This document shows positions 7,529 through 54,988 of a stretch of DNA of 64,000 nucleotides, in pieces. Every line of letters starts with the position of its first letter. The first letter of the stretch is position 1. Origin of the DNA: Candidatus Omnitrophota bacterium (lineage in GTDB: Bacteria > Omnitrophota > Omnitrophia > Omnitrophales > Aquincolibacteriaceae); the NCBI GenBank assembly GCA_016930235.1, contig JAFGHI010000047.1, positions 86,215 to 150,214 of the forward strand, given 5' to 3'. The notes under the pieces are model-generated. The model saw only the letters and a program-made list of their open reading frames with translations. It had not been told where the DNA came from and did no database searches. The position numbers and the translations under genes are program-made.

Positions 7529-8593
7529 ATGCCCATAGCAAGGACGGTTTTGTTTCAAAAATATTTACTGCGCTGGTACAAAAGAAACGCCCGCCAACTA
7601 CCCTGGCGCAAGACAAAAAACCCTTACAAGATTTGGGTCTCCGAAATCATGCTTCAACAAACACAGGTCGAAACAGTTATCCCCTTCTACAAAAAATGGT
7701 GCCAAACATTCCCAAGCGTTCGAACACTTGCGAATACCCCTGCTCACAAAGTGATGAGGCTTTGGGCCGGGCTGGGATACTACCGAAGAGCCCGGGCACT
7801 TCACCAAACAGCAAAAATAATTGTTGAAAAGCACAAAAGCAAACTTCCAGTCTCCGTGAAAGATTTGATGAAACTTCCAGGGATCGGAAGATATACCGCC
7901 GGAGCCATAGCCAGCATCGCTTTTGGCAAAACGGCACCTGTTCTGGATGGCAATGTGATACGCGTCCTAACCCGCCTTCATGCGATTTCCAACCCGATCG
8001 ATTCTCCCATGACCATTCGAAAGCTATGGGAGATGGCGGAGAGCATGGTTCCCAAGAACCATGCCGGAGATTTCAACCAAGCCATGATGGAACTTGGAGC
8101 CATGATTTGCCGCCCGGATTCCCCAAAATGCGGCATTTGTCCTGTCTCAAAGTTTTGTTCGGCTTATCGAAAAAATATGACGAAAAAAATACCTTACCGT
8201 CTCAAGAAGGAAAGAATAAAAAAAATAACCTCCGCGGCGCTCATTTTTCAAAGAGATGGGAAAGTCCTAGTTCAAAAACAGCCGAGGGACGGCAGGTGGG
8301 GCAGTTTATGGATGTTCCCCTTTTGGGAAAACAAAAAAGATTTCTTGAAGGAGGCCGGATCCGGTCCGAAAAATATCAGGCACAAATTTACAATCCGTCA
8401 TGGTTTTACGAAATATTCCATTAATCTTCAAGTCTTCTCTAGCAGGACTTTCCGGCCCTTGTCCCTGTGGGCTAAGCCGTTGGAGAAAAAAAATCAATGG
8501 GTATCCATCCGGAATCTCGGAAAACTGGCTTTCCCATCGCCTCACAGAAAAATCGCAGAGTTTCTTTTGGAAGAGTCTTTCAAGGAACAATAA
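7529..8593 (+). CDS. mutY: A/G-specific adenine DNA glycosylase
   Basis: LLRWYKRNARQLPWR, HhH-GPD (LPGIGRYTAGAIASIAFG), 4Fe-4S cluster loop CRPDSPKCGICPVSKFC, C-terminal NUDIX-like domain. Confidence 0.9.
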   Translation: MPIARTVLFQKYLLRWYKRNARQLPWRKTKNPYKIWVSEIMLQQTQVETVIPFYKKWCQTFPSVRTLANTPAHKVMRLWAGLGYYRRARALHQTAKIIVEKHKSKLPVSVKDLMKLPGIGRYTAGAIASIAFGKTAPVLDGNVIRVLTRLHAISNPIDSPMTIRKLWEMAESMVPKNHAGDFNQAMMELGAMICRPDSPKCGICPVSKFCSAYRKNMTKKIPYRLKKERIKKITSAALIFQRDGKVLVQKQPRDGRWGSLWMFPFWENKKDFLKEAGSGPKNIRHKFTIRHGFTKYSINLQVFSSRTFRPLSLWAKPLEKKNQWVSIRNLGKLAFPSPHRKIAEFLLEESFKEQ

Positions 8594-8597
8594 GTTT

Positions 8598-10193
8598 TTA
8601 TAAGGCGGCGAGTTTCTTCCGGCAAAGGAGAAGACTTCCTGTGCGACTTACGGGCTCATAAGCTTCATAACCGCATGTCATCTCTTTGGTTTCCCACTCG
8701 GCAGAAGAATAGAAGGTATCAGGCGGGTAATCGTAAATTTTCCAATCGATCTGTTTCCCTTTTTCGAAAAGCGCTGATAGACCGTCTCGGTAAAATAAAT
8801 CCCATAAAAGATAAGAAGGTTCGTGAAGTCCCATGCTTTTCTCATGAACAATGTGTTTTCTAAAAGAGAAAAAAGGAATAAGGGGTTCCTCAGTAGAAAC
8901 AGAATCCGTAGAAGGGATAAGCTTAATCACTTCCTGAATGTCCTTGGTATGTAACGCCAACACCCGCTGGTAAAAGAACCCTGTTTTGAGCTGATAAAGA
9001 TGGTATCTTGCTCCCTGAAAAGCAGCTGTCCCAATAATGAATAGGATGACTCCAAGAAAAAAATTTTTTGCAGCGGCGGAAGAGCCGTCTAATAACCCGG
9101 ATAATCGAGTCCATCCGACCGCCCCTGCGGCCATGATAAAGGGATGAAGCATCACCGTATAATGATCATTAATCCCCACATGGACAGCCCCGAAATTGGA
9201 AGCCAAGAAATTGAGCAATACAATGGGAGTAACGGCCAGCAACATCTCAAACCCAATAAAAGGCAAAAAAGCTAACGGGCCAAACCAGCTCCAAAAATAC
9301 CAAAAACCCACCGGATGGATCATTTGCATCAATACCGGGATCGGATTCTTCAGAAATCCAGTCAATGCTTCTTCTTTTGTGCTGCCCAAAGTCGAAAAAA
9401 GTCCGATATCGGACCAATTCGGCTCAAATATTTCCATGATCCAAAAGAAACTGACGACAAACCATAAAAGCCCACCAACAAACCATCCGATAAAATAAAT
9501 ATTCCTCCGGTGTTTTTCCGTCAAGCTTAAGTCCCCTTCGCGTCCCAACCACTGTTTGATTAACAACACAACTCCAAGCGCAGCCACACACAAACTAATA
9601 TATTCCTTAAACATACTCCCCAATAAAAACAATACCGTAGCCAGGCCATATTTTCGTTTGAATAGAAAATATAATCCGCCGGCCAAATATGGCGTTGCCC
9701 AATTCTCAAAATAAAAATGACTTAAAGGCGGTGTGTAAACAGTTAAATAGCAAAGTAAATAAATATAAGAGACCCAACTATTTTTAGTTATTTCACGAAC
9801 TAAGAGATAAACAAAAATACCCGCAATAAGAAAGGAGATGGCATGAATAAAAAGACCTGTCTCAAAAAACGGGAGGAATCGGAAAAAAAACCCGTAAAGG
9901 AACCCCATCGGCATGAAATGCTTGCCGAGAAAGAAATAAATTTCGCCCGGCTCCGCATAAGAAACGGGGATTTCAAAATGGCCGGCTTGCCATAAGGAGG
10001 TCAGGAGAATGCCCGTATCAGCCGCACCAAAGACATAATTGGAAAGCTTCGCCCAAGCAGAAAAAAAATACTGCAGAGAAAATAAGATAAGAATAGCTGT
10101 TAAAATCGGGTATTCTTTTTTTAAGATTTCATCTTTCAATTTCAATGAAAGGCATCTCCAATCTTGAAGAACTTTTAGGCGGGAAAATACCAA
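8598..10193 (-). CDS. polytopic membrane protein, DUF2079-like (last gene of the glycan operon)
   Basis: More than 10 hydrophobic helices, no soluble catalytic motif recognised. Family assignment is from memory of DUF2079 sequences. Converges with mutY (4-bp gap). Confidence 0.45.
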   Translation of the reverse strand: MVFSRLKVLQDWRCLSLKLKDEILKKEYPILTAILILFSLQYFFSAWAKLSNYVFGAADTGILLTSLWQAGHFEIPVSYAEPGEIYFFLGKHFMPMGFLYGFFFRFLPFFETGLFIHAISFLIAGIFVYLLVREITKNSWVSYIYLLCYLTVYTPPLSHFYFENWATPYLAGGLYFLFKRKYGLATVLFLLGSMFKEYISLCVAALGVVLLIKQWLGREGDLSLTEKHRRNIYFIGWFVGGLLWFVVSFFWIMEIFEPNWSDIGLFSTLGSTKEEALTGFLKNPIPVLMQMIHPVGFWYFWSWFGPLAFLPFIGFEMLLAVTPIVLLNFLASNFGAVHVGINDHYTVMLHPFIMAAGAVGWTRLSGLLDGSSAAAKNFFLGVILFIIGTAAFQGARYHLYQLKTGFFYQRVLALHTKDIQEVIKLIPSTDSVSTEEPLIPFFSFRKHIVHEKSMGLHEPSYLLWDLFYRDGLSALFEKGKQIDWKIYDYPPDTFYSSAEWETKEMTCGYEAYEPVSRTGSLLLCRKKLAAL

Positions 10194-12616
10194 GGCATAT
10201 ATTCCGGAACCATCGTTTTTATTTTTTCGATAACATCATCCCGACCAGCGCCTTGGCGAACGCTTGCCACTAACGACATAATCTGTTCATTAATATCAGA
10301 TGGCGGATCTTGTATCGACTTCCAAATCTTAATCTTCTTATGAGAGGTCGGCATAGCTTCTTCACTATGCATTTCGATCTCTTCATTCAATTTTTCCCCT
10401 GGCCGAAGCCCGATGTAACGGATAGGCACCGCTTCTCTGGGAAGTCCCATTAATTGAACAAGATCCTTTGCTAAATCAACGATCTTGACGGGTTCACCCA
10501 TATCTAAAATAAAAATTTCAGACTTGGATCCCATCGCTGTGGCCTGCAAGATCAGGAAAACAGCCTCGGAAATCTCCATGAAATACCGTTTAACATTGGG
10601 GTCTGTTATGGTGATCGGCCCCCCTTGCTCAATTTGTTTTCGAAAAAGCGGGACAACGCTCCCTTTACTATTGAAGACATTCCCAAATCGTACCGCCATA
10701 AAACGCGTCCCGCTATTCTTCAAGCTTTGAGTATAGAGTTCGGCAATCCTCTTCGTTGCGCCCATAATGCTCCTGGGACGAATGGCTTTGTCTGAGGAGA
10801 TGAGAACAAAACTCTCTGCCCCATGCTCTAACGCCAAGTCCGCCATAATCTTGGATCCGAGAATATTGTTAAAAACCCCCTCCATATAGTGAATCTCCAT
10901 CAACGGGACATGCTTGAAAGCTGCGGCGTGATAAATAACATGAGGTTTGTGGCGTGAAAATATTTTCTGCATCTCATCGTAATTCGTCACACTCCGCAAA
11001 TAGGCAGCAACGCTTGTTTCAGAGGCCTTATTCTGTAAATCCGTCTCAATTTCATAAAGATTGTTTTCGGAATTATCGATTAAAATGAGTTCTTGAGGAA
11101 AATTTTGATGGATAATCTTGCTTAATTCTGACCCGATGGATCCACCCGCTCCAGTAACTAGAATACGTTTATTTTTTAAAAAGTTCTGAATGCCCGTAAG
11201 ATCCGCCTGTACCAGCTCACGACCCAAAAGATCAGAAACTTCAATATTTCGTAAACGCAACGGCAATACCTGTGGAGACATCAAAGGTGATGCATGTGGA
11301 AGAATCCGGCAAATAATATCCAAAGAACGGCAAACCTTAATAATATTTCGAATTTCATCCCCCGAAGCTTCCGGAAGCGCAATAATCACCTCATCTGTTT
11401 TCGTCACCCGGATAACCTGCGCAAGCTGTGTAATCGTTCCGATAACTTTAACGCCATGAATTCTTACACCAATTTTCTGAGGATCATTGTCCACAAATCC
11501 AATCGGCCAATAGCCCAAATCCGGCCGCCGGATATACTCTCTGACCAAGAATTCTCCCGGGTCCTCGGCCCCGACAATAAGAACACGCTTGCGTAAATCA
11601 AACCGGGGCTTGCGCAATTTCTCTGCGGTAACTTTGAAAACAATCCGAAGCCCCCCGAGCGCCATAATCAGCATAAACCAATCAATAATCACAATGGACC
11701 GCGGAATCGGGATGATCTGCAAGAGAAAAGGAACAAGCGGTAACAATAGCGTTCCGACCGAAACAGCTTTAATGATCGAAATTAATTCTTGAATGCCAAG
11801 ATACTGCCATAAACTTTGATAGAGGCCGAAATAGATAAAGCAGGGCGCTCTTAATAAAAATACGAAAGGGATAAGAGTTTTTAAAATCATCATATCGGCA
11901 GGAGGAATATCCCCCTCAAACCGAAGCGCAAAAGCCACATAAAAACTGCCGGTGGAAATAATAAGATCAGCGATAAGAAAAGCAAACCTTCGCCGGCTTT
12001 CAAGGATATATCGAAACTTGATGGAACTTAAAAGAAGAGTTGCAACGCCGCCAAAAAGGAATTTCCAGTCTTTAAAAATATCTTTGTTTCTAACGTACGC
12101 TAAATCAGCCTCTATCTTTTTAGGCAGGATCTTCTTGATGTAAAACTCTTCGACATCCCCTTCCTCAGGAATCATGGATTCTTCATCCCGGTTCGTAATC
12201 TGGTTGGGCCCCATTAACCCAGGTTGTACTTTCAATATTTTTCGTTCCTCTAATGTATATGTCCCTACAATTTCAGGGACTTCCGGACGGGGGCCTACGA
12301 TACTCATTTCTCCTTTAAAAACGTTAATAAACTGGGGGAGTTCATCAATCTTTAGCCATCGCAGCAGCCCTCCGACCTGAGTCACTCTGGGATCATTCCG
12401 ACTTGTTATCTTTGCCCCAACCGTTTCCGCGCTCTCGATCATCGTCCTGAATTTTAGGATATAAAATACCTTACCGTCCTTACCGACTCTTTTCTGTTTA
12501 TAAATAATGGGCCCTGGGGAATCAGAGCGAATCATAATCGCAGCAACCAGCATAATCGGGCTGACCAATAAGAGGCACACAAGAGAGACAACAATATCAA
12601 ACAATCTTTTTGCCAT
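10175..12616 (-). CDS. bifunctional fusion: PglC-type small phosphoglycosyltransferase (N-terminus) + PglF/CapD-type membrane-anchored UDP-sugar 4,6-dehydratase (C-terminus)
   Basis: N-terminus: single TM then IIYKQKRVGKDGKVFYILKFRTM...DELPQFINVFKGEMSIVGPRPEVPE (bacterial sugar transferase signature). Then 4 TM helices. Then ILVTGAGGSIGSEL (Rossmann), HAAAFKHVPL / YxxxK region and GATKR, typical of CapD/PglF/WbpM. Confidence 0.8.
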   Translation of the reverse strand: MAKRLFDIVVSLVCLLLVSPIMLVAAIMIRSDSPGPIIYKQKRVGKDGKVFYILKFRTMIESAETVGAKITSRNDPRVTQVGGLLRWLKIDELPQFINVFKGEMSIVGPRPEVPEIVGTYTLEERKILKVQPGLMGPNQITNRDEESMIPEEGDVEEFYIKKILPKKIEADLAYVRNKDIFKDWKFLFGGVATLLLSSIKFRYILESRRRFAFLIADLIISTGSFYVAFALRFEGDIPPADMMILKTLIPFVFLLRAPCFIYFGLYQSLWQYLGIQELISIIKAVSVGTLLLPLVPFLLQIIPIPRSIVIIDWFMLIMALGGLRIVFKVTAEKLRKPRFDLRKRVLIVGAEDPGEFLVREYIRRPDLGYWPIGFVDNDPQKIGVRIHGVKVIGTITQLAQVIRVTKTDEVIIALPEASGDEIRNIIKVCRSLDIICRILPHASPLMSPQVLPLRLRNIEVSDLLGRELVQADLTGIQNFLKNKRILVTGAGGSIGSELSKIIHQNFPQELILIDNSENNLYEIETDLQNKASETSVAAYLRSVTNYDEMQKIFSRHKPHVIYHAAAFKHVPLMEIHYMEGVFNNILGSKIMADLALEHGAESFVLISSDKAIRPRSIMGATKRIAELYTQSLKNSGTRFMAVRFGNVFNSKGSVVPLFRKQIEQGGPITITDPNVKRYFMEISEAVFLILQATAMGSKSEIFILDMGEPVKIVDLAKDLVQLMGLPREAVPIRYIGLRPGEKLNEEIEMHSEEAMPTSHKKIKIWKSIQDPPSDINEQIMSLVASVRQGAGRDDVIEKIKTMVPEYMPWYFPA

Positions 12617-12640
12617 ATTAAAATTCGTCCCTTTGGTTCT

Positions 12641-13828
12641 TCATCGGCGAAAGCCCTTCACAATGTCACACACGGCAGAAACGACATCGTAAGCATCCTC
12701 GTCTGTCATCTTGGGGTATAGTGGCAATGAAATCATCCGTTGATATTCCTCATAAACCACAGGAAAGTCTTCTGGTTTAAACCCATAATTATTCCGATAA
12801 TAGGGATGCAAATGAATGGGAACGTAATGAACGCTGCTTCCGATATTCCTGCCCCGCAGCTCTTGAATAAATTGATCCCTCGAAAGAGAAAGTCGCTCCA
12901 AATTCAAGCGCAGGATATACAAGTGCCAGGCATGATCGACCCCTGTTTTTTCAGTCGGAATTTCAATTTCTCCAAGCTGAGAAAACGCCTGATGATAAAT
13001 TTTAACAATCTGTCTTCGGCGATCCATAAATTGAGGAAGTTTTCGCATTTGATGGATCCCGATCGCTGCTTGAAGGTCCATCATATTGTACTTAAACCCG
13101 GAAGCAATAACTTCATAATACCAGCTCCCTGTCTCAGAATAACGGTCCCAGGCATCGCGATCAATCCCGTGAAGGCTGTAAACTCTCGCTTTTTCAACCA
13201 AATCCCGACTCCCGGTTAACATCCCGCCTTCTCCGGTCGTCATATTTTTGGTAGCGTAAAAACTGAAGGCCGTCAAATCACCTATCGCTCCGATCATACG
13301 TCCATTGAATTTGGCTGGAATAGCATGAGCTGCATCTTCTAAGACGAACAACTGATACCGCTTGGCTAAATCCATAATTAAGTCCATATCACAAGGATGT
13401 CCAGCAAAATGGACAGGAAGAATTGCTTTAACTTTTTTATCTCTTGTTTTCCTAAGATTTTCTTCGATCTTGAAAGGGTCAATATTGAGAGTATCGCGCT
13501 GGATATCGACTAAAAGAGGAGTTGCACCCACCTGCTCGATTACGTGAACTCCTGAACAAAACGTCATGGGAGTCGTTATCACAACATCCCCTTGACCAAT
13601 TCCCATAGCTGCCAATGCAGTATGAAGCGCCCCGGTCCCGGAACTTAACCCCAACGCAGCTTGAGCTCCAACCAAACGGGCAAATTCTCCCTCAAATTTT
13701 TTAGTCCTCGGTCCGGTTGTGATCCAGTCGGATCGAAGAGTCTCGATCATTTCGATGATTTCCTCTTCCCCTAAAAGCGGAGGGGAAAAAGGCAGGAACG
13801 TTTGTCTTGGCTTCGTCTGGCCGCTCAT
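12641..13828 (-). CDS. DegT/DnrJ/EryC1/StrS-family PLP aminotransferase (PglE/WecE-like UDP-4-keto-6-deoxy-sugar aminotransferase)
   Basis: LPFSPPLLGEEEI...DWITTGPRTKKFEGEFARLVGA; SFYATKNMTTGEGG (PLP lysine region). Confidence 0.9.
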   Translation of the reverse strand: MSGQTKPRQTFLPFSPPLLGEEEIIEMIETLRSDWITTGPRTKKFEGEFARLVGAQAALGLSSGTGALHTALAAMGIGQGDVVITTPMTFCSGVHVIEQVGATPLLVDIQRDTLNIDPFKIEENLRKTRDKKVKAILPVHFAGHPCDMDLIMDLAKRYQLFVLEDAAHAIPAKFNGRMIGAIGDLTAFSFYATKNMTTGEGGMLTGSRDLVEKARVYSLHGIDRDAWDRYSETGSWYYEVIASGFKYNMMDLQAAIGIHQMRKLPQFMDRRRQIVKIYHQAFSQLGEIEIPTEKTGVDHAWHLYILRLNLERLSLSRDQFIQELRGRNIGSSVHYVPIHLHPYYRNNYGFKPEDFPVVYEEYQRMISLPLYPKMTDEDAYDVVSAVCDIVKGFRR

Positions 13829-14550
13829 TTTTTCTCCGGCAGTTGTTTGATAAAATAATACTTGAACAATGTCAGAACCGCAAAAAGAAAGTCTTTAGCC
13901 TTGATCTTTTTACCTTCCTTCGAGGTCCTGCCTTCATAAGAGATAGGCAGCTCCATAATCCGAATACCCTTCTTAGCTAAGAGCGCAGTCACTTCGGGCT
14001 CGAATGAAAAACGATTTGCCTTAAGGGCGAGATGTTTGACAATATCAGCTCTAAAGACCTTGTAGCAAGTCTCCATATCGGTCAATGGAAGTTTAAACAA
14101 TAAATTAGTCAGAAATGTCAAAAAACGGTTTGCCATCCAATTAGGCCAAGCCATTCCTTTGGGATAACAGCATCCGAGAAAACGGCTCCCATAAACGACG
14201 TCGGCTTCACCCTTTAAGATAGGGTCCAATAATTTTGGTATCTCCGACGGCTTATATTCAGTATCGGCATCTTGGATAACAATCAGTTCCCCATGCGCTT
14301 GGCGAATTCCCTTCCGGATCGAATAGCCTTTCCCGCGATTAATTCTATTTTTAAATAAACGGATATTATTGTCCTCGTGCCTATTCTTTAATCTGATCAT
14401 CGTTTCCTTTTCATAGGTTCTATCAATGGAGGCATCATCGACGATAATGATCTCATGCGCAATAGGATATTTGACCGATTGCACATAATGGATAAGCTGT
14501 GCAATGGTATTATGCTCATTATACGTAGGGATAATGATTGACAATTTCAT
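13825..14550 (-). CDS. glycosyltransferase family 2 (polyprenyl-phosphate sugar synthase-like)
   Basis: MKLSIIIPTYNEHNTIAQL...IIIVDDASIDRT...VIQDADTEY (DXD). Start taken at the internal ATG, which forms an ATGA overlap with the upstream gene; the ORF-track start is 14652. Confidence 0.85.
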   Translation of the reverse strand: MKLSIIIPTYNEHNTIAQLIHYVQSVKYPIAHEIIIVDDASIDRTYEKETMIRLKNRHEDNNIRLFKNRINRGKGYSIRKGIRQAHGELIVIQDADTEYKPSEIPKLLDPILKGEADVVYGSRFLGCCYPKGMAWPNWMANRFLTFLTNLLFKLPLTDMETCYKVFRADIVKHLALKANRFSFEPEVTALLAKKGIRIMELPISYEGRTSKEGKKIKAKDFLFAVLTLFKYYFIKQLPEKK

Positions 14551-15257
14551 CCTCGTTCCGGCTCCCACCGAATAAGCCCGACATAATGTGAATTCATGAA
14601 CGGTATTCTCGATAAGACCCTGCATACTCCCAAGAATTTGGGCGCTAACCATCTCGCAAGAAAGGGGATCAAAGTTGCCTTTTTTAGGATAACTTTAGCT
14701 CCCGGAAATAATTTTCGGATCTCGCTTCCAGTAATCCCTTTAACGTTTCTATTCTTTGGGTTGTCGTATCGGAAATCATACCACAAAATAACGCCATTCT
14801 CTTTTAATACACGCCTCATTTCGTGAGCAATTTTTTGTTTTAAACGAGGATCTAAAATCGATGTAAACATCGTTGATTGCAAAACCACGTCGAAAAACTT
14901 ATCCGGCCAGGGTAAATTTTCGGCGTTCCCAGGGGATAAATTCGCATTTGGCAATACGGCCTTGGCTTTCTCAATAAGATGCGTCTCTAAATCAAGACCG
15001 TAAAGATTTTTCTGAGGGACATCCCAATTTGAAAAATCCTCGAGCCAAATGCCGGATCCACACCCCACTTCCAGGATTTTTTTGTTTTCTAATGGCAAAA
15101 TTTTCGCCACCTTAAGGAGCTCCAACATTTTCTCTTTTCTTTGATCATACATCAATCGATTTCCGGGCTGTTTTAAGGAGTAGAATGCAACGGGAATTTC
15201 CCTGGCCCGGCGATCGTATTCTTTCTTGATCCTTTCGATTTCCTTATTCTCGGTCAT
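14547..15257 (-). CDS. class I SAM-dependent methyltransferase
   Basis: ILEVGCGSGIWLEDF (motif I), downstream acidic motif II. Confidence 0.8.
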   Translation of the reverse strand: MTENKEIERIKKEYDRRAREIPVAFYSLKQPGNRLMYDQRKEKMLELLKVAKILPLENKKILEVGCGSGIWLEDFSNWDVPQKNLYGLDLETHLIEKAKAVLPNANLSPGNAENLPWPDKFFDVVLQSTMFTSILDPRLKQKIAHEMRRVLKENGVILWYDFRYDNPKNRNVKGITGSEIRKLFPGAKVILKKATLIPFLARWLAPKFLGVCRVLSRIPFMNSHYVGLIRWEPERG

Positions 15258-21721: not shown

Positions 21722-22588
21722 CTATCCATAAAGAAAAAACCCAAAAAGGATTAGCCAAAGAATGAATGTCCCAATCATCCCTTTATCTCGCAAGAAAATC
21801 CTGATAGGGTCTTCTCCCTTATTTTTTTCAATAACTAAAAACAAATACCGCATGACACCATAAATCACAAAGGGCACCGTAAAATAAAGTTTGTTGCCTG
21901 AATAATAGATTGCTTGTTCAGAAACAGTATACAGTATGTAGGTAAGAATTGCGGCCGAAGACATGATGACTAAACACAAATCCAAATAAGGTACGCTATA
22001 GCTTGATAATACCTTCCGTTGTTTGTTTGCTTTCTTCTGCATCAGCACAAGTTCGCTGCGTCTTTTACCAAACCCAACAAACATGGCCAATAATCCTGTA
22101 CAAATAATGACCCAATGAGAAAGAGCAACCTCCACCACAAGGGCCCCCGCTAGCAGTCGGAATATATAAAAAAGGCTGAAGCAAACAACATCAACGATGA
22201 CAACCTGTTTGAGATAACAAGAATAAAGCCAGTTAATAATAATCACAAAAATCATTAAAATACCTAATTGCACATTGATACAAAAAGCAAAGAAGAGAGA
22301 AATCAACGCGAGGATGAGAACCGCCGCCCAACCTTTACGGAAAGACAACTGACCGGATGCAATGGGTCTTAGTTTTTTAATGGGGTGAAGCCTATCATTC
22401 TCGTAATCTAAGATATCATTGAAAATATAAACAGCGCCCATCATCGCCGTGTAAGTCAAAAAGACCAAAATAGAGCTGATTGCGAGATCTATCCTAAGAA
22501 GACGTAAACCGAAAACAAGCGGGACAAAAACAACAATATTTTTCACCCACTGCCTTGGTCTCATGCTAAGCAATATGGCTTGTATCAT
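21722..22588 (-). CDS. UbiA-family prenyltransferase, decaprenyl-phosphate 5-phosphoribosyltransferase-like (polyprenyl-P + PRPP)
   Basis: RPRQWVKNIVVFVPLVFG; YIFNDILDYENDRLHP (NDxxDxxxD); second Asp-rich motif; 8-9 TM helices; 288 aa. Confidence 0.7.
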   Translation of the reverse strand: MIQAILLSMRPRQWVKNIVVFVPLVFGLRLLRIDLAISSILVFLTYTAMMGAVYIFNDILDYENDRLHPIKKLRPIASGQLSFRKGWAAVLILALISLFFAFCINVQLGILMIFVIIINWLYSCYLKQVVIVDVVCFSLFYIFRLLAGALVVEVALSHWVIICTGLLAMFVGFGKRRSELVLMQKKANKQRKVLSSYSVPYLDLCLVIMSSAAILTYILYTVSEQAIYYSGNKLYFTVPFVIYGVMRYLFLVIEKNKGEDPIRIFLRDKGMIGTFILWLILFGFFLYG

Positions 22589-23690: not shown

Positions 23691-24847
23691 TATGATCTCG
23701 CGATAATCTCTTTGAACAACGATTCATATTCCTCGATAGTTTTTTTATAGCTATAGCATTGTTCAACGGCTTCTCTCGTCTTGATATAAGCAGAAGGATT
23801 ATGAACAATCCGCTCAACAGCTTGGGCAAGCATTAGAGGGTTATCGCATTGAACCACCTCTCCCATTCCTGTAACCCGGACGGCTTCACGCCCTCCAGGG
23901 ATATTGTTCACAATCACCGGGGTTCCACATAACATGGCCTCGACTTGAACAAGCCCCAAGCATTCCGTTTCGCTTGGAAGAACAAGCACGTCACAAGCAG
24001 AATAGAAATCCGCAACATCTTGCTCATTAAGAAGCATTCCCAAAAAAAGAATATCCTTCTCATGCTTCTCGATTAATTCTTTGCATCTTTCGAAGTAATT
24101 TTCGTAAAAGAGTTTGTGTGACCCAGCAAACACAAGCTTAACGGGGCCAATTCTTTCTTTGATCAGAGGAATCGCGCGGATGAGTCGATCCGGCCTCTTC
24201 TCTTCAACAAAACGTCCAGCATAACCCAGGATTATCTGCCCCTCTGCCCCCCACTTCTTTTTTAATCTGACTTTAGCATCCGAGCTTGGAACAGGAATCA
24301 CTGCTGGAGGATAAATCTTAACCGTCTTATTTTGAACGCGCCGCAAAAAACGAGACTGTTCAATATAGTCATGACTATATCCTGTAATTTTTCTTGCGAA
24401 TCGAGCTGCCAAAAAAGAAAGCCAATAAACGGCAGGTTCGACAAACAAACTAACGATTTTATCCTTCGGGAGCGTTAAATCGCCATGATGAGTAATAACA
24501 AATGGCTTACGCATAATTCGGCAAATGGGCGCTGTCCATATCATTTCAAGCGAAGGGCTATGGAGACTTACAGCATCGGCCCATTTAAGCCATGAAAATA
24601 CCTTGAAAAAGAAAGAAGGCGCAATAACACCGCGACTAATCCGAAAAAGAGGTTTGAAACGAATAATCCGCACTCCATCAACCCATTCCTCTTTTGGCTT
24701 CGCACGATCATGCCAGGCTGCCAATACAATCACCTCATGCCCCTTCTGCGCCATGCCACGTGCCATCCGTTCAATATGAAGAGTCATTCCCGTTCGGTGA
24801 GGCAAATAATAAGTCGTGATAATCAATAATTTCATAGGATACCCCAA
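23690..24847 (-). CDS. glycosyltransferase family 4
   Basis: MKLLIITTYYLPHRTGMTLHIERMARGMAQKGHEV...; C-terminal VEAMLCGTPVIVNNIPGGREAV. Confidence 0.85.
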   Translation of the reverse strand: MGYPMKLLIITTYYLPHRTGMTLHIERMARGMAQKGHEVIVLAAWHDRAKPKEEWVDGVRIIRFKPLFRISRGVIAPSFFFKVFSWLKWADAVSLHSPSLEMIWTAPICRIMRKPFVITHHGDLTLPKDKIVSLFVEPAVYWLSFLAARFARKITGYSHDYIEQSRFLRRVQNKTVKIYPPAVIPVPSSDAKVRLKKKWGAEGQIILGYAGRFVEEKRPDRLIRAIPLIKERIGPVKLVFAGSHKLFYENYFERCKELIEKHEKDILFLGMLLNEQDVADFYSACDVLVLPSETECLGLVQVEAMLCGTPVIVNNIPGGREAVRVTGMGEVVQCDNPLMLAQAVERIVHNPSAYIKTREAVEQCYSYKKTIEEYESLFKEIIARS

Positions 24848-26829
24848 ACTCGAAGTTCAACGCCGGGCTCAAACACCTCGAATTCGATTGATTCAATTTT
24901 AACTTCATCCTCCAAACCGTATTCGTAACTATAAATTTTAGCTTCGAAATCGCGCCAGCTTCCCGAGTAGGCTCTTTTCCCGGCCATATGAATTCTCTTT
25001 CTCCAGGAAAATACGGGCTCCGCGGTTTTACCCTTCCGCAATAAATCTTCTTCCATCCAGGAATGGGTTTCCTCCCCCTTAACAATGGGTAGATCCAAAC
25101 GCCCCTCTTTTGAAATAATTCTAATCCGTCCAATCATGACACCATCCGGAATACTCACCGACCCCGTAAGATTCGAAAGAAGGGTAAGATGTTTCGTTGA
25201 AAAATCGTTTTGATAATGAACCTTCTTGATTAATTCGTCGGTGATTGTCAGCGGACCGAGAATCTCAATTTCTTGCCCTTGAACCGACAAGTTGAATGGA
25301 AAATCTAGATCCATAAATTCCATACCCAACAATTCTTGCGGCAAAGGTTTCTGAATCGAAGGGGGCGCCGAATCATTATTTTTTTCATAGATCAACGCGG
25401 TCAAAGGCGGACGGACGATTTTCCTTTTTAAGGTGTATTCATTCTCGACATTCCGTAAAATATTATTTAATTCCTGATGCATCTCTTTTCTGAAATCAAA
25501 GAAAACCAATAATATCCTCGATAAATCTTCCTCTTGTTTCTCAATATTTAATAAATCCCAAGCCGAATGCATATTTTGAAAATCAGAAAAGTAATATCGG
25601 AAATATGGTTCCGCCCGCCCGCCGTAAAATACAGGCAAATCGGTTGTTTCATTTTCCAGAAAAACTTCCATATCATGCCACGATACGCGTTTGCCCGAAA
25701 AGGACCAGTCGCCCTTGAAGTAGCAGAACGAGGCGCCCAGATTAATGAGGATGAGCGCGGTTGAAAATACCAGTGCCCACCTACCTGAAAAACGGCTCAC
25801 TCCAAAACAAAGCGCAAGATAATACACCGGTAATAAAAAGAGAAGGTATCGAAATTGAACACCTGTGGTTTTGGGCGCAAAAGAGTCAAGCCCCAGGACA
25901 ATAAATATGAGAGTAAAAAAGGAAACACCCATAATGGCCTTTAATAATCGATTCTCCTTCATCCTTTGTATAGCGATGAAAAGGAGAACCGCATGGATTG
26001 AAAAAGCAGGAATAACAAGGAACCACAGCATGGGATAAACCGAATTACCGAGCACAAACTGATAAATCGTTATCGCAAGCTTCCCTAGATTAACAATCCC
26101 AAATCCCCTTGACTCGATATATCCGTGAACAGTTACCGCATGAGCATAATGCTGAAGCATATCATGGGCTTTTTCACGAAAAACATAAGCAAACACCAAA
26201 AGGATAAAGACCCCTAATCCGCAAATAATAATCTTCCATAAGCGCCGACGCTTCGAAAGAAAAAATAAGACAAGAAACTGAATGGCCACCAAAAATATCC
26301 CGAAACCATGAGACAAAATACAGAAGATGTCAGCGACACCCCACAAAAGACCTGCTCGAAGACTGCGTTGGAAGTAAAAATACGCAAAGGCCAACCAAGC
26401 AAATGTCGAATTCATCAAAAAGAAACTATAAAATCTTAGAGATTGTGAATGATAAAGAGCCAAGGGAGAAGTCGCAAGAAGGAGCCCGAGCAAAAACCCC
26501 ATTCTTGCATTGATCAAAAGGGAACCCAACATATAGATCAAACAACATGCAAATGCTCCAAAAAGAACAGAAGCAAATCGAAGCCATATCTCCGACGTTC
26601 CAAAAAAAGTCCAAACCTTCATGAACAAAAAATACAGTAAAGAATGGATATTCAATCCGAAGTATTTAATCTCTTCGACCGTATGGAATTCATCTCCGGA
26701 CAAAGTGCAGCGATTTAACCCGACAAGGCGAAATGCCAGAGAGAAAACAAAGAGACCGGCAAAAACAAAAAATAAATTTGTCCTGTTTATCCCCCAGCCC
26801 ACAGAGCTTAATGGAGACCGTAATTTCAT
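24832..26829 (-). CDS. GT-C fold membrane glycosyltransferase (ArnT/PMT, GT39/83-like) with C-terminal periplasmic domain
   Basis: About 12 TM helices; first-loop SGDEFHT (DE motif of GT-C enzymes); about 270-aa soluble C-terminal domain. Start set at the ATG giving an ATGA overlap with the upstream gene; the ORF-track start is 26907. Confidence 0.6.
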   Translation of the reverse strand: MKLRSPLSSVGWGINRTNLFFVFAGLFVFSLAFRLVGLNRCTLSGDEFHTVEEIKYFGLNIHSLLYFLFMKVWTFFGTSEIWLRFASVLFGAFACCLIYMLGSLLINARMGFLLGLLLATSPLALYHSQSLRFYSFFLMNSTFAWLAFAYFYFQRSLRAGLLWGVADIFCILSHGFGIFLVAIQFLVLFFLSKRRRLWKIIICGLGVFILLVFAYVFREKAHDMLQHYAHAVTVHGYIESRGFGIVNLGKLAITIYQFVLGNSVYPMLWFLVIPAFSIHAVLLFIAIQRMKENRLLKAIMGVSFFTLIFIVLGLDSFAPKTTGVQFRYLLFLLPVYYLALCFGVSRFSGRWALVFSTALILINLGASFCYFKGDWSFSGKRVSWHDMEVFLENETTDLPVFYGGRAEPYFRYYFSDFQNMHSAWDLLNIEKQEEDLSRILLVFFDFRKEMHQELNNILRNVENEYTLKRKIVRPPLTALIYEKNNDSAPPSIQKPLPQELLGMEFMDLDFPFNLSVQGQEIEILGPLTITDELIKKVHYQNDFSTKHLTLLSNLTGSVSIPDGVMIGRIRIISKEGRLDLPIVKGEETHSWMEEDLLRKGKTAEPVFSWRKRIHMAGKRAYSGSWRDFEAKIYSYEYGLEDEVKIESIEFEVFEPGVELRVWGIL

Positions 26830-28106
26830 GGCCGCCGTTGACCCTTTAAACGATTTGGCTTTGGCCTCTCTTTGCAGAAACGACTGCGAAAAAAACAGGA
26901 CAGCCAAAAAAGAGCGACAACGATATATGGAAAGATATAAGGTTTAAACGGAGCTAAGTAACGGGGTTCGACATGAAAAGGAATATGTAAAACGGTCATA
27001 TAAATAAAGGAAAACCAAAAAACGGACAAATCCTTTCCCTGTTTGCGGGTAAGAAATAAACCGACAATGAAAAACACCAATAAAGCCGAATCAAAAATAA
27101 CGACCGTCTCGCGCACGGCCGGCCCAGACCGGCTTGGATAACTTATCCACAGCCGGAGCACTCTCACCCCACAGCCCTTGAGATACTCAAGAGGACTCTC
27201 CGTAATACGACTTAAGGTTTCCCGAATATAAAGCGCTTCCAAATCGAGCGAAGGATCTTGTTGATAGGCCGTTTCTAATTTGCGATGGATCTCGTCAAGT
27301 TCGCGTCTTCTCGGATCTTCCGGATCATCCAACCAAAACCCCCAATGCCATAAATCATACTTCTGATCGACTGTCGCAAGAATCAAATTATGTCCCATAT
27401 TCCCTTTTGACAAAGGAATCCATTCGCGAAAGATTAGATAATTGCGAACCGTCCAAGGAGCGAGAACTATAACCATGGACATCACGAGCAAAACTGTGCC
27501 CCAAAACCATTCTTTCCCGCGTATCCCCTGCCAAAACAAATGCATAAGGATGACAGCCGGGAACAACAGCATGATGGGTTTACATAAAACAAGAAGCCCC
27601 AGGGAAAAACCGGTTGCGGTCAAAAAGAACTTTCTGCGGGTTTTGCCATACTGGATCCAGAACAACACCATGAGGGCTGTCAAAAAGATGCTCAAAATCT
27701 CCGTCAAAATACCCGAGGCATAATAGGCCAATGGAAAATAAAGCGCTAAACCAAGACTTGCCCCCAAGCTCACCTTCTCATCAAAAAAATGACGGGTAAT
27801 ATAAAACAATAAAACGCAACACCCTGAAAATATGAACGATTGAAAAATCAAAACGATCATAGGTTGATGCCCAAAAAAGAAATACAAAACGCCCAGGAAA
27901 AGAGGGTAAAGCGGCGGCTTGAGAATTAAAGGGCCTTTAGGCCCTACCAATCCTTTTCCATTTGCGAAATTCCACGCAAAGGTATCATACCAAGAACCGT
28001 CGGCACTCAAAGGCTGCCGATAATGAAAAACATAAATAAACATCAAGGCATGGAGGAGCGCTATGAACGCAATCGCAATAAGTATCATGTTTCTCTTACT
28101 CAGCAT
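26826..28106 (-). CDS. GT-C fold membrane glycosyltransferase (ArnT-like)
   Basis: FANGKGLVGPKGPLILKPPLYPLFLGVLYFFFG (KPPL signature region of ArnT/GT83-type enzymes), 10+ TM helices. Confidence 0.55.
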   Translation of the reverse strand: MLSKRNMILIAIAFIALLHALMFIYVFHYRQPLSADGSWYDTFAWNFANGKGLVGPKGPLILKPPLYPLFLGVLYFFFGHQPMIVLIFQSFIFSGCCVLLFYITRHFFDEKVSLGASLGLALYFPLAYYASGILTEILSIFLTALMVLFWIQYGKTRRKFFLTATGFSLGLLVLCKPIMLLFPAVILMHLFWQGIRGKEWFWGTVLLVMSMVIVLAPWTVRNYLIFREWIPLSKGNMGHNLILATVDQKYDLWHWGFWLDDPEDPRRRELDEIHRKLETAYQQDPSLDLEALYIRETLSRITESPLEYLKGCGVRVLRLWISYPSRSGPAVRETVVIFDSALLVFFIVGLFLTRKQGKDLSVFWFSFIYMTVLHIPFHVEPRYLAPFKPYIFPYIVVALFWLSCFFRSRFCKERPKPNRLKGQRRP

Positions 28107-36000: not shown

Positions 36001-36066
36001 AACCGTAAAACGTTCGATCCCTCGAAGGTGACGAAATAAAAAAGGTGATATTAAAACAATCTTCAC
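33058..36066 (-). CDS. tri-domain enzyme: GT4 - GT4 - SAM methyltransferase (1002 aa)
   Basis: Two full GT4 units (MKIVLISPFLFRHLRGIERF...EAMSSGLPLVLADNPPL; then LKIAIISPFLFRYFRGIERSS...LEAFAMELPVIVSRHVPY). Then a zinc-ribbon-like CSICGW...CPKCRS and the methyltransferase core MKCLDIGPWLG...FDLVICFHVLEYVEG...LKKGGILILSE. Confidence 0.8.
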   Translation of the reverse strand: MKIVLISPFLFRHLRGIERFTVEVANSFSKQGVDVHIITWKENKAWPWGPLETNVHLHTVCLPKYFRSFFAGIIYPFILRKLRPDVTCILFAWHGENIAFRLAPEFLASTCLILHYPAEQVPHRYRMMEKCFLVKHAKVIVGVSDYVAEQAAFLLNRKIPVISSGVNPEEFCLAKNTNKKDLRAKLGLPLDMKIILTIAAFEKRKGIDYCIDVIDQVRQSHPDVLYLVLGDGPEAKKLKKHVEMHRLEKHVKFGGAVTNTSDYYLASDIFLFLSKGEGSPLALLEAMSSGLPLVLADNPPLNQMAAQNGAHYVKREEIGKVCQVVSDLLDSSDKRLQMGKANREQAVKKYAWSVIANEYLKLFRDCFDLGKEEWQGIRKRPLKIAIISPFLFRYFRGIERSSIHLANELAARGHKVDLYTWSGDLGCSVTAVSPEVKLIKSPRFRYFQAILVIPFYLYWFLKNDYDAVNIYFSDCGEALPLKILRYIKKTKINFIVGYPFEHTSHRFKKFKFLRFDKAIDGIVVKTGPMAQGVASFFGRKVQVIPNGIDHQKFKPQDHNRNNIRKMFGIYENECVLLTVSALEVRKGIQHVIRAVRKMVDENIPVRYWIVGAGPYYSKLHRLVQKLNLNSHVHFVTEGVDILPYYALADIFILLSKGEGFPNVILEAFAMELPVIVSRHVPYPDLVTKETGFLVDETNAEELGRAIKKLLNSQNLRKEMGRTGRIVVEEKYCWGTIAEKYIDLFYGQISKLGDERTTKNFIVKLRQWIKSGQFLQWAKGLLVKFGLSVVNAIVPQSFKGKVCSICGWKGVEFFPVVSPWAYRPGAQCPKCRSLERHRGLVQLFEDRRLLRKGMKCLDIGPWLGLKKYLLEAGVSCVTIDRGFIPADSVMDVCHLGIRDEAFDLVICFHVLEYVEGWEKAIKELYRCLKKGGILILSEFSDRELQKTEKKDPRKVITGTPIMKFGRDFFLCLEQAGFKVEAHNYVIGSTKGADWIYICTKADA

Positions 36067-40657: not shown

Positions 40658-40691
40658 GAATAATTTTTCTTTATCATTCAAAGAACATGCG

Positions 40692-42693: not shown

Positions 42694-43323
42694 TTAAAGC
42701 GGTTGAACACAAGCTTCGTCCACTTGGACTGACACCGATTGCATTAATAAATCAAGCGAGATGACCAAACGGCAGTGCCGATCCTTGCGGACGATATACC
42801 CTTCCGTTCCTTTAAAAGGACCTGTTGAAATATAAACCCGGGCGCCTTCTTTTAAGTAAGGGAACGGATCCAAAGGTATTTCCTCCTCGACAAATTTTCG
42901 AAGACTTACAATATCCTTCTCGGGAACTTCGATCGGATTCGACGGCTTAGGCCCTACAAATCGAACAGCGCCGGCAGTATTTAGCACCTGCCATCTTTCC
43001 TTGAAAGGAATACGAACGAAAAGATACCCTTTGAACAAAGGCTCCTCGATCAATTTTTTGCGATCGGACCATTGCCGTGAAATTCGTCTCATGGGCAGAA
43101 AGGTTTCGATCCCTTTCTTTTGTAATTCCCGATCCGTTAACTTTTCATGCCGGCTCTTGGCATAAAGTGCAAACCAACGTACCTGGTTCCACTTCTTCTT
43201 GATTCCCTCATCCCAAGAAACAGCATTCCAAGATTCTTGCGACTCTTGAATCATGGGATAATCCCCCGTGAAGACAGTTAGAAAACACGGAAATTTATAC
43301 TCATTCTCCCGCGTCTTCCTCAA
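42694..43323 (-). CDS. NusG-family paralog (NGN + KOW), operon-specific transcription antiterminator of the RfaH/UpxY/LoaP type
   Basis: NGN: VRWFALYAKSRHEKLTDRELQKKGIETFLPM...EEPLFKGYLFVRIPF. KOW: EGARVYISTGPFKGTEGYIVRKD. About 40 N-terminal residues fall outside the NGN fold. The ORF-track start is TTG at 43323; an internal ATG lies at about 43254 (MIQESQ). Confidence 0.75.
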   Translation of the reverse strand: MRKTRENEYKFPCFLTVFTGDYPMIQESQESWNAVSWDEGIKKKWNQVRWFALYAKSRHEKLTDRELQKKGIETFLPMRRISRQWSDRKKLIEEPLFKGYLFVRIPFKERWQVLNTAGAVRFVGPKPSNPIEVPEKDIVSLRKFVEEEIPLDPFPYLKEGARVYISTGPFKGTEGYIVRKDRHCRLVISLDLLMQSVSVQVDEACVQPL

Positions 43324-54649: not shown

Positions 54650-54988
54650 AAAGGATTCATTATTCCACAATTACAGCGTTTGTCAATTGGACAAGCATAA
54701 CCCCTGAAACCGCTTCGACCACCGCGGCCGTGGCCGTTTTTTAGACCCCAGACAGACTAGACACTTTTCTCGTTGTCTTCAAGAGGAGTTAAGAGACGCC
54801 ATTCTCAATGGAATGGGGAATGGCGGATCGCAACAGTGAGGACCACTCAAACCGGCGTTCATTTTTCGCGGTCCGAACGATCCTCGAAAAGACAAGGAGA
54901 AAAGGGGCTTGCCTGCCTAACAAGATGTCGGGCAAGCGTCCCATGTTAGGAATGATTGAAAAGGCCACCTACGCGGTGGGCGAAGCGG

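Follow-up and report, generated by a model that had tools for sequence, protein, structure and literature searches.

The locus described here raises the question of why an initiating phosphoglycosyltransferase (PGT) and a sugar-nucleotide dehydratase are encoded as a single polypeptide, and which sugar this polypeptide would place first on its lipid carrier. The stretch of 64,000 nucleotides (64 kb) that was analysed is referred to below as the window. In the initial annotation, the fusion was taken for a substrate-channelling arrangement dedicated to a bacillosamine-like sugar. The analysis indicated that the 813-aa protein is probably the bifunctional initiating enzyme of a surface-glycan operon of approximately 35 kb, in which steps 1 and 3 of the pathway are fused and UDP-FucNAc4N is the most likely sugar. 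The positions of the features are listed in Table 1.

Table 1. Features of the window discussed in the text.
Feature	Positions	Strand	Basis
Bifunctional PGT-dehydratase protein, 813 aa	10175..12616	(-)	ORF, Pfam and NCBIfam; NCBI MBN1688947.1
PGT catalytic domain (aa 1-200)	12017..12616	(-)	PF02397; alignments to WbaP and PglC
Four-TM-helix bundle (aa 208-331), PglF/WbaP-type membrane anchor	11624..11995	(-)	Hydropathy and AlphaFold2
Rossmann-like PF13727 domain (aa 340-440)	11297..11599	(-)	Pfam, 60.6 bits
SDR-fold UDP-GlcNAc 4,6-dehydratase domain (aa 456-790)	10247..11251	(-)	PF02719, PglF match
DegT-family PLP aminotransferase, 395 aa, predicted WbgX-type UDP-4-keto-6-deoxy-GlcNAc C4-aminotransferase	12641..13828	(-)	Pfam and similarity
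GT2 glycosyltransferase, AglJ/PpgS/ArnC-like polyprenyl-phosphate sugar synthase type	13825..14652	(-)	Context gene
DUF2079 polytopic membrane protein, last operon gene	8598..10193	(-)	PF09852, 112.6 bits; context gene
UpxY-family NusG-like antiterminator	42694..43323	(-)	NF033644, 143.8 bits (cut-off 100)
CysE serine O-acetyltransferase, only hexapeptide-repeat/left-handed beta-helix protein of the 64 kb	53963-54670	(-)	TIGR01172, 235.5 bits (cut-off 210.65)

The coordinates first given for a fusion at position 10175, next to an aminotransferase gene, were exact, and the product was 100% identical to an NCBI protein from an Omnitrophota MAG. It consists of a small-type monotopic PGT and a full-length, membrane-anchored dehydratase of the PglF/CapD type. 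The HMM assignment that had been proposed as a check was carried out with Pfam, and PF02397 (Bac_transf) was found at the N-terminus (aa 3-194, E-value 2.5e-57, 193.7 bits against a gathering cut-off of 27) and PF02719 (Polysacc_synt_2) at the C-terminus (aa 485-764, 3.1e-104, 348.7 bits), with PF13727 (CoA_binding_3) between them (aa 263-439, 2.6e-16). The PF02397 domain was complete, which disposes of the possibility that the N-terminal part is a mere TM anchor of CapD. Hydropathy revealed one N-terminal hydrophobic helix (aa 5-28), in agreement with the single helix claimed for a small, PglC-class PGT. Four TM segments followed, at aa 211-231, 242-264, 277-299, and 307-329. The corresponding helices in the AlphaFold2 model (mean pLDDT 85.6) were located at aa 208-232, 239-262, 275-299, and 306-335, and this bundle aligned with the N-terminus of WbgZ. 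The order of the modules was hence monotopic PGT, four TM helices (4TMH), PF13727 and PglF-type UDP-GlcNAc 4,6-dehydratase, so that the PF02719 SDR domain stands behind a 4TMH bundle and PF13727 as in PglF/WbpM/CapD. The large-PGT model TIGR03025 also matched the protein, in two stretches with a total of 318.3 bits (cut-off 295.55). The PF13727 domain, or “DUF,” of WbaP has been reported to bind uridine nucleotides (PMC10942596).

The catalytic motifs were intact in both halves of the protein. In the PGT half, S19-P20 of the N-terminal helix (nt 12533-12604) aligned with the Ser-Pro of WbaP. Among 35 fused homologues, P20 was conserved in at least 90%, and both the Asp-Glu dyad D91-E92 (in KIDELPQ) and the PRP motif P109-R110-P111 were invariant or near-invariant. 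Judging from the hydrophobic stretch and its Ser-Pro break, the helix would be re-entrant, and the domain is predicted to move a phosphosugar onto undecaprenyl phosphate (Und-P) with release of UMP. In the dehydratase half, the NAD-binding motif TGAGGSIGS (GxxGxxG) was followed by the catalytic residues S608-D609-K610 and by M618, which replaces the SDR tyrosine; the PglF counterparts are T395, D396, K397, and M405. The D and K were invariant and the T was at least 90% conserved in homologues, the Ser of the window protein being a conservative change. This domain scored 268.8 bits against C. jejuni PglF, and Foldseek matched its AlphaFold2 model to the PglF crystal structures 5bju/5bjw with a target-normalised TM-score of 0.95, an rmsd of 2.0 Å and 42% identity. 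The equivalog of the inverting PseB/FlaA1 dehydratases was not reached (TIGR03589, 147 bits; cut-off 407.75).

The identity of the sugar depends in the first place on the aminotransferase. This enzyme had been described as following the fusion immediately; since both genes are on the minus strand, it lies upstream of the fusion, at a distance of 25 nt. PF01041 (DegT) was assigned with an E-value of 2.8e-121 (405.6 bits), and Lys194, in SFYATK, was identified as the Schiff-base (PLP) lysine. The description as PglE-like was not upheld: in the comparisons, the PDB ranking included, the highest score corresponded to WbgX (392 bits), followed by ArnB (303), Spr1654 (244), QdtB (177), PseC (138), PglE (122), and WbpE (100). 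Likewise, the C3-aminotransferase of a different pathway, named in the initial annotation as a possible objection, is disfavored by the scores of WbpE and QdtB against that of ArnB, and the enzyme resembles the C4 enzymes. WbgX of S. sonnei (47% identity) was the best plasmid match, and Spr1654 is a predicted AATGal aminotransferase (PMC5936713). The NCBIfam equivalog cut-offs of ArnB (367.6 bits vs. 631) and PseC (374.7 vs. 423.5) were both missed. WbgX, ArnB, and Spr1654 all install an axial (galacto or L-arabino) 4-amine. By similarity to these three, the 4-amine of the product would be axial as well, the role of WbgX itself having been deduced from genetics and the glycan structure. A Priestia aminotransferase, equally similar to the enzyme of the window, is followed by a GNAT acetyltransferase gene.

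The specificity of the PGT domain could not be read from its sequence, and an assignment by similarity was rejected, because many PGTs of differing specificity, large ones among them, share about 40% identity with this domain, and its best E-values (about 1e-50) fall short of the thresholds of 1e-61 to 1e-71 at which the published PGT network is isofunctional (PMC11626204). The top scores were obtained with PGTs from Parabacteroides (161 bits, locus L090) and Fusobacterium (156 bits, locus L091 of F. vincentii), which are counterparts, in other strains or species, of characterised enzymes, and PglC reached 91 bits. The genes around them form an aminotransferase-PGT pair in the former and a dehydratase-PGT-aminotransferase cassette in the latter. 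The mobile-loop motif GLLLP marks diNAcBac-specific PGTs (PMC10186338); read against that work, it was not found in the PGT domain, where the equivalent loop is ESAETVGAKITSRNDPRVTQVG. The diNAcBac-specific PglC subgroup also has an aromatic box of five residues, one of them in the C-terminal extension; in this comparison, the alignment with PglC ended at aa 162-164, and the C-terminus of the domain ran on into the TM bundle.

Additionally, the window was searched for an N-acetyltransferase. The Pfam scan covered 45 ORFs of at least 90 aa, chosen by greedy non-overlap selection, and a methyltransferase ORF outside this selection (14547-15257) was scanned separately with Pfam. Neither a PglD-like or other sugar N-acetyltransferase nor a GNAT was found among the ORFs of the 64-kb window. 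The claim that the locus lacks a PglD-like enzyme was therefore correct, and extends to the entire window: the only left-handed beta-helix (LbH) protein, considered as the missing PglD, was rejected as such and is CysE. Five further fused loci had no acetyltransferase gene beside the cassette either, and none was found among the ten genes scanned upstream of it in four unfused loci (L001, L062, L065, and L076).

These results bear on an alternative close to the original proposal, in which the product of a functionally PglE-like aminotransferase is UDP-4-amino-QuiNAc (bacillosamine), possibly acetylated to diNAcBac by an enzyme encoded at an unlinked site, and the PGT is a PglC-type diNAcBac/Bac transferase. 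The PGT does belong to the small PglC class, C. jejuni PglF, from the diNAcBac pathway, is the nearest solved relative of the dehydratase domain, and an acetyltransferase could be encoded beyond the 64 kb, elsewhere in the genome. Some FucNAc4N PGTs also accept UDP-Bac, the two amines not being sharply separated (PMC11626204). Nevertheless, PglF-type dehydratases also serve FucNAc4N pathways (PMC11626204). FucNAc4N with a free amine is more likely than diNAcBac because the aminotransferase resembles WbgX, ArnB, and Spr1654 rather than the distant PglE, GLLLP is absent and the only LbH protein is CysE. A bacillosamine-type sugar is also made less likely by the gene order, which matches wbgX-wbgY-wbgZ of the FucNAc4N-containing S. 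sonnei O-antigen. Hence, the alternative was considered unlikely, although worth keeping in mind. From the original proposal of a bacillosamine-like UDP-4-amino-4,6-dideoxy-HexNAc, the C4-aminotransferase type was retained, and bacillosamine became the less likely sugar.

The genomic context was consistent with a glycan operon. The UpxY-family gene heads a single-strand operon with the aminotransferase, the fusion and the DUF2079 gene at its far end; GT4 and GT2 glycosyltransferases, methyltransferases, an MsbA/PglK/HepA-like ABC transporter and a Wzy_C-type ligase are also encoded. The GT2 gene next to the cassette overlaps the aminotransferase start by 4 nt, its true start being likely Met35 at 14550; it was rejected as a WbgW orthologue (28% identity over 109 aa). 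The DUF2079 gene shares 19 nt with the 3′ end of the gene for the fusion and is absent at the related Omnitrophota loci L081, L086, and L087. An ArnB/ArnC/ArnT-like Und-P route, composed of the aminotransferase, the GT2 and DUF2079, was weighed as the chief function of the aminotransferase and set aside, because in relatives the latter two do not stay with the cassette.

The aminotransferase accompanies the PGT and the dehydratase in other genomes. In GTDB genomes, unfused counterparts were found as adjacent genes, a small PGT and then the dehydratase, spaced by about -19 to +51 nt (L062 and L065, for example, show 4-nt overlaps) or, in L063, by 256 nt; with a tighter adjacency window, 12 loci carried this gene pair. 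The matches of the GTDB scan that appeared “full-length” were rejected as fusions in cultured strains, as ORF analysis resolved them into separate adjacent genes. The aminotransferase was directly upstream of the unfused pair in L001, L045, L062, L065, and L076, and a DegT gene was directly upstream in six of the eight fused loci examined (window, L082, L086, L087, L088, and L089). No adjacent aminotransferase was present at the other two, L083 and L081, the latter 62% identical and with the same flanking genes. This arrangement indicates that the fusion derives from a conserved aminotransferase-PGT-dehydratase cassette, apparently by loss of a stop codon.

The loci without an adjacent aminotransferase are compatible with a second alternative, in which the PGT transfers the dehydratase product, UDP-4-keto-6-deoxy-GlcNAc, itself to Und-P and the aminotransferase serves another sugar of the glycan. 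PGTs specific for a keto sugar have been reported (WreU and Cps9F; PMC11626204), and the joining of consecutive enzymes would be the simplest rationale for a fusion. Furthermore, fusions lacking an aminotransferase domain were seen in which a dehydratase is joined to a polytopic PGT or, with the two parts in the opposite order, to a monoPGT. Against this, the aminotransferase gene lies directly upstream, often overlapping, at most of the fused loci and at several of the unfused ones, the same three genes constitute the S. sonnei FucNAc4N cassette, and no other enzyme producing a 4-keto sugar for the aminotransferase was seen in the operon. This second alternative thus appears improbable, somewhat more so than the first.

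The fusion is not peculiar to this locus; it proved to be widespread and common in environmental bacteria. The order PGT-4TMH/DUF-dehydratase was shared by 111 of the 120 best database clusters (clustered at 90% identity; 38-65% identical to the window protein), and 58 of the 150 best representatives at 50% identity carried the PGT-dehydratase fusion. These 111 clusters, drawn from NCBI, ENA, JGI, and Logan assemblies, were collinear and similar in length (811-819 aa in the closest group), and the linker and both catalytic cores were conserved. That the single ORF is an assembly or frameshift artefact joining two genes, or its PGT part only the TM anchor of CapD, can consequently hardly be credited, even if the window is part of a metagenome-assembled genome and the two genes are separate, abutting or overlapping by 4 nt, in many others. 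No description of a PF02397+PF02719 fusion was found in the literature full text searched, a coverage that did not extend to the monoPGT-fusion network paper.

The preferred pathway to an initiating FucNAc4N would then comprise four steps. In step 1, the SDR domain, held at the cytoplasmic face by the four TM helices, would convert UDP-GlcNAc into UDP-4-keto-6-deoxy-GlcNAc, as PglF and WbgZ do. In step 2, the separate, translationally adjacent aminotransferase (PLP, Lys194) would produce a UDP-4-amino-4,6-dideoxy-HexNAc, most likely UDP-D-FucNAc4N (AATGal), with an axial, unacylated amine. In step 3, the PGT domain, with its re-entrant helix and D91-E92, would put the sugar-1-phosphate on Und-P, and UMP would be released. 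In step 4, the Und-PP-sugar would prime the glycosyltransferases, methyltransferases, ABC transporter and ligase of the operon. Direct channelling is not implied, because step 2, which lies between those of the two fused domains, is left to the unfused enzyme; the fusion claimed at first was real, and the channelling was overstated. The likely benefit of the fusion would be a fixed 1:1 stoichiometry and a common place at the membrane for the first step and the last, and the shared PF13727 domain may provide a common feedback by uridine nucleotides.

A broader and rather doubtful speculation is that the 4TMH-PF13727 module is a general platform for docking and uridine-nucleotide sensing, PglF-like dehydratases binding a small PGT in trans as large PGTs do in cis, and that the fusions represent a frozen membrane metabolon. 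The occurrence of fusions in both gene orders and with both the monotopic and polytopic PGT superfamilies, and of a stand-alone PGT-4TMH-DUF protein, encoded in L045, would fit this idea. [quoted passage not shown]

The finding of the fusion overturns nothing established. The locus predicts how a large, heavily methylated surface glycan would be started in this Omnitrophota bacterium, with a 4-amino-4,6-dideoxy-HexNAc whose amine is probably free. In Shigella, Bacteroides, and pneumococcus, such free-amine sugars make polysaccharides zwitterionic. As the fusion ties the initiating PGT to the dehydratase, this family, abundant in uncultured lineages, offers a ready-made genomic link between a PGT and its sugar-nucleotide pathway, which is needed for the annotation of PGT specificity. 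The fusions are also natural single-chain constructs for asking whether the early stages of glycan assembly are organised by PglF-type membrane anchors.

Among the known systems, the closest was the wbgX-wbgY-wbgZ cassette of S. sonnei and Plesiomonas shigelloides O17, in which the order GT2, aminotransferase, small PGT and 4TMH-DUF dehydratase is the same. On the S. sonnei pINV plasmid, a GT2, WbgX, the 196-aa PGT WbgY, and the 639-aa dehydratase WbgZ are encoded, and the identities to the window were 47% for the aminotransferase, 43% for the PGT and 36% for the dehydratase, TM and DUF parts included. The three activities are adjacent and on one strand in the window, as in that cassette; both have a 4-nt GT2/aminotransferase overlap, in spite of GT2 genes that are not orthologous, and both lack an acetyltransferase. 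One constituent of the form I O-antigen of S. sonnei is FucNAc4N, its amine being free (PMC4368438). WbgY and WbgZ are made from two genes 14 nt apart, whereas the window encodes one polypeptide, and the remaining cluster comprises Wzx/Wzy in S. sonnei and an ABC transporter, many GT4s and methyltransferases in the window.

The C. jejuni PglF/PglE/PglD/PglC pathway shares the logic of a 4TMH-anchored 4,6-dehydratase, a DegT C4-aminotransferase and a small monotopic PGT. It differs in having PglD, GLLLP, a distantly related aminotransferase and an unfused PGT and dehydratase, and the predicted product of the window would have, unlike diNAcBac, a free and probably axial amine. The systems whose relatives gave the top PGT scores were the FucNAc4N systems of Bacteroides fragilis (WcfR/WcfS) and Fusobacterium; the genes of L090 and L091 are unfused, and their aminotransferases are more distant from the window enzyme (244-247 bits). 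UDP-FucNAc4N is the substrate of WcfS and of a PGT from F. nucleatum, and it has been prepared with PglF plus WcfR (PMC11626204).

The 813-aa protein belongs to the known class of bifunctional monoPGTs (BiPGTs), in which one chain unites a monoPGT core with a further catalytic domain from its pathway (PMC11626204, PMC10942596), as in PglB of Neisseria gonorrhoeae. The examples named for this class have an acetyltransferase or a glycosyltransferase as partner, whereas the 813-aa protein carries a polytopic dehydratase and is thereby transmembrane instead of monotopic. Large PGTs (WbaP, WcaJ, and CpsE), whose substrates are simple UDP-hexoses, contain the same three modules, 4TMH, PF13727 and PGT core, with the first two N-terminal to the PGT; in the protein of the window, this order is permuted, the PGT coming first and the SDR dehydratase being appended at the end.

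The 813-residue protein was confirmed as a fusion of a phosphoglycosyl transferase (PGT) and a dehydratase, as the initial annotation had proposed: Pfam placed PF02397 at its N-terminus and PF02719 at its C-terminus, and the catalytic residues of both domains were intact. These residues (D91-E92 and P109-R110-P111 in the PGT; TGAGGSIGS, S608-D609-K610 and M618 in the dehydratase) were also conserved in fused homologues. Hydropathy analysis revealed a single N-terminal hydrophobic helix (aa 5-28, with S19-P20 inside) and, C-terminal to it, four TM segments within aa 211-329; a re-entrant helix combined with an even TM count would place every catalytic domain in the cytoplasm. The AlphaFold2 model of the fusion, built with 35 homologues as input, was confident (mean pLDDT 85.6), with a pTM of 0.56 that is normal for a multidomain protein. 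When superposed on the crystal structure of C. jejuni PglF, the C-terminal domain gave a TM score of 0.95, an rmsd of 2.0 A and 42% identity. Both ORFs lie on the minus strand, and the positions first given for them were exact. The adjacency of the aminotransferase gene also held, but this gene does not follow the fusion gene; on the coding strand it lies upstream, separated by 25 nt.

The possibility that the fusion was an artefact was excluded, since 111 of the best 120 database clusters (90% identity clustering, 38-65% identity) showed the same collinear order of PGT, four-TM-helix bundle with PF13727 domain (4TMH/DUF) and dehydratase, across NCBI, ENA, JGI and Logan assemblies. These clusters came from Omnitrophota, KSB1, Armatimonadota, Nitrospinaceae and Deltaproteobacteria. 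An identical protein from a Candidatus Omnitrophota MAG was found in NCBI (MBN1688947.1) under the generic label 'polysaccharide biosynthesis protein'. Of the 150 top-ranking representatives (50% identity), 58 had the collinear order and 78 were plain PglF-like proteins; three (P0255, P0259 and P0262) had the reverse order, dehydratase-monoPGT, and four metagenomic proteins of 945-1013 aa (P0038, P0217, P0240 and P0264) carried a polytopic PF00953 PGT (WecA/MraY family) N-terminal to a 4TMH-PF13727-PglF-type dehydratase. The PGT-dehydratase architecture is a widespread, recurring solution. Fused and unfused forms were intermixed in a rough NJ tree of the dehydratase domain. In the proteins P0200 and P0232, a response-regulator receiver domain was observed at the C-terminus.

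Apparent full-length matches in the GTDB scan were rejected as fusions, since ORF analysis resolved them into abutting separate genes, a small PGT followed by a PglF-like dehydratase. The gaps in these unfused GTDB pairs were about -19 to +51 nt, with 256 nt in the locus L063, and the tighter adjacency window used with the dehydratase tree marked 12 such loci. An aminotransferase was encoded directly upstream of the unfused pair in the loci L001, L045, L062, L065 and L076. The fusion gene of the window is this aminotransferase-PGT-dehydratase cassette minus the PGT stop codon. When eight fused loci were examined, DegT was found directly upstream, often overlapping, in six, and L081 and L083 had no adjacent DegT. 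The locus L081 (GCA_964385615.1, CAYLPP010000005.1) encodes a fused orthologue with 62% identity, neighboured as in the window by MutY, DHFR and a TPR protein; no aminotransferase was present within 8 kb, and genes for UDP-glucose dehydrogenase, an epimerase, PMT_2 and GT2 adjoined the fusion. Judging from L081, the primer sugar may vary among close relatives.

A search of 72,556 plasmids with the aminotransferase gave the S. sonnei invasion plasmid as the top match (47% identity, 96% of the query). The S. sonnei genes wbgW-X-Y-Z encode a GT2, an aminotransferase, a 196-aa sugar transferase and a 639-aa dehydratase, in an order identical to that of the window, and a 4-nt GT2/aminotransferase overlap is common to both regions. 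WbgY was 43% identical to the PGT domain, and WbgZ was 36% identical to fusion residues 209-776, TM and DUF parts included. The O-antigen of S. sonnei is zwitterionic and contains L-AltNAcA and FucNAc4N (PMC4368438). When aminotransferases were compared by phmmer, WbgX (392 bits) fell within the range of those of other cassettes (368-597). More distant were ArnB (303), Spr1654 (244), which is a predicted AATGal aminotransferase (PMC5936713), PseC (138), PglE (122) and the C3-aminotransferase WbpE (100).

The PGT domain was about 40% identical to many PGTs, large PGTs among them, and its scores lay under the published isofunctional-cluster thresholds (PMC11626204), so PGT similarity is not decisive for the sugar. 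The top scores were obtained with PGTs of Parabacteroides (161 bits) and Fusobacterium (156 bits), located in aminotransferase-PGT and dehydratase-PGT-aminotransferase cassettes, respectively, and PglC reached 91. The GLLLP loop, a mark of diNAcBac PGTs, was absent from the window PGT. The claim that the locus lacks a PglD-like N-acetyltransferase was borne out for the 64 kb, where the sole left-handed beta-helix protein was CysE; a scan of the ten genes upstream in four other cassette loci likewise gave no acetyltransferase. Overall, a 4-amino-4,6-dideoxy-HexNAc primer, as first suggested, is well supported. The bacillosamine-type, PglE-like part of that suggestion is less likely, given the PglE and WbgX scores and the missing GLLLP loop. 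A galacto-configured sugar (FucNAc4N) whose amine stays free is the likelier reading, not a proven one.

In the proposed pathway, the tethered dehydratase domain would convert UDP-GlcNAc to UDP-4-keto-6-deoxy-GlcNAc, the soluble aminotransferase (Lys194-PLP) would convert this keto sugar to the UDP-4-amino sugar, and the monotopic PGT domain would then yield Und-PP-sugar (Und-P, undecaprenyl phosphate) and UMP. The Und-PP-sugar would be the primer for products of the ~35-kb glycan operon. Substrate channelling, initially ascribed to the fusion, does not agree with this scheme: the fused domains perform the first and third steps and the second is unfused, so that no direct product channelling would occur within the fusion unless the PGT took the keto sugar. 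Co-localisation, fixed stoichiometry and possibly shared PF13727 regulation would be more defensible benefits. The PF13727 domain of WbaP binds uridine nucleotide, and UMP inhibits WbaP (PMC10942596).

The homology of the 4TMH-DUF module between large PGTs and PglF-like dehydratases has been called puzzling (PMC10942596). Speculatively, this module could be a PGT docking and regulatory platform common to both, an idea that several observations fit. Every module of a large PGT is present in the fusion, in permuted order, and the protein passed TIGR03025 (318.3; cut-off 295.55). In the set of 150 representatives (50% identity), fusions of a dehydratase with a PGT came in either order and involved the monotopic as well as the polytopic PGT superfamily. 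Finally, L045 (Verrucomicrobiota MAG CAYMDA010000019.1) carries a 474-aa ORF (7872-9296) with a PGT at aa 44-228, then a 4TMH/PF13727-like region at aa 251-461, and no dehydratase domain; from its sequence, this protein has the appearance of a large PGT that has been circularly permuted. Directly downstream of it (9368-11344) lies a complete PglF-like dehydratase that has a 4TMH/DUF of its own, and the aminotransferase is upstream.

The operon occupies about 35 kb of one strand (43.3 kb to 8.6 kb) and encodes many GT4 and GT2 enzymes, several SAM methyltransferases, a polysaccharide deacetylase and a UbiA prenyltransferase, together with a Wzy_C-type ligase/polymerase and an MsbA/HepA/PglK-like ABC transporter. 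At its head lies a NusG paralogue of the UpxY antiterminator family, an arrangement shared with Bacteroides capsule loci but present here in Omnitrophota. The GT2 beside the aminotransferase probably starts at Met35 (nt 14550), immediately past the stop codon of the methyltransferase gene upstream of it; with the UbiA and DUF2079 proteins, it suggests a second route, in which donors linked to polyprenyl monophosphate would serve extracytoplasmic modification. Three multi-domain glycosyltransferase genes stand in a row; domain fusion is an operon-wide habit, not peculiar to the PGT gene. The 691-aa ORF inside the operon had no Pfam or NCBIfam match, and the 461-aa ORF outside it no Pfam match. 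The giant 2995-aa ORF gave weak matches to Glu/Leu/Phe/Val dehydrogenase, HEAT, TPR and class I SAM methyltransferase families, and most of it had no family match.

Coordinates of the fusion, its domains and neighbouring genes in the window
Feature	Position	Strand	Details
DUF2079 polytopic membrane protein	8598-10193	-	
Fusion ORF	10175-12616	-	813 aa
PF02397 Bac_transf	aa 3-194 of fusion		Pfam, E 2.5e-57
PF13727	aa 263-439 of fusion		Pfam
PF02719 Polysacc_synt_2	aa 485-764 of fusion		Pfam, E 3.1e-104
DegT aminotransferase	12641-13828	-	395 aa; Pfam E 2.8e-121
GT2, AglJ/PpgS/ArnC polyprenyl-phosphate sugar synthase type	13825-14652	-	
UbiA-family prenyltransferase	21722-22588	-	
ORF	24832-26907	-	691 aa
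GT4-GT4-methyltransferase	33058-36066	-	1002 aa
GT4-GT4	36063-38606	-	847 aa
GT4-FkbM methyltransferase	38558-40681	-	707 aa
UpxY-family antiterminator (NusG paralogue), operon head	42694-43323	-	143.8 bits, cut-off 100
ORF	48829-50214	-	461 aa
Giant ORF	54989-63976	-	2995 aa

Enzymes, pathway logic and cassette had all been described before, and NCBI contains a record of this very protein. No description of a PGT::PglF-type fusion was found in the literature searched. Bifunctional monoPGTs are a recognised class, for which the cited partners are acetyltransferases or glycosyltransferases (PMC11626204, PMC10942596), and purification of two 'transmembrane' BiPGTs of about fitting size, their domain make-up unstated, is already under way in the same groups (PMC12776464).
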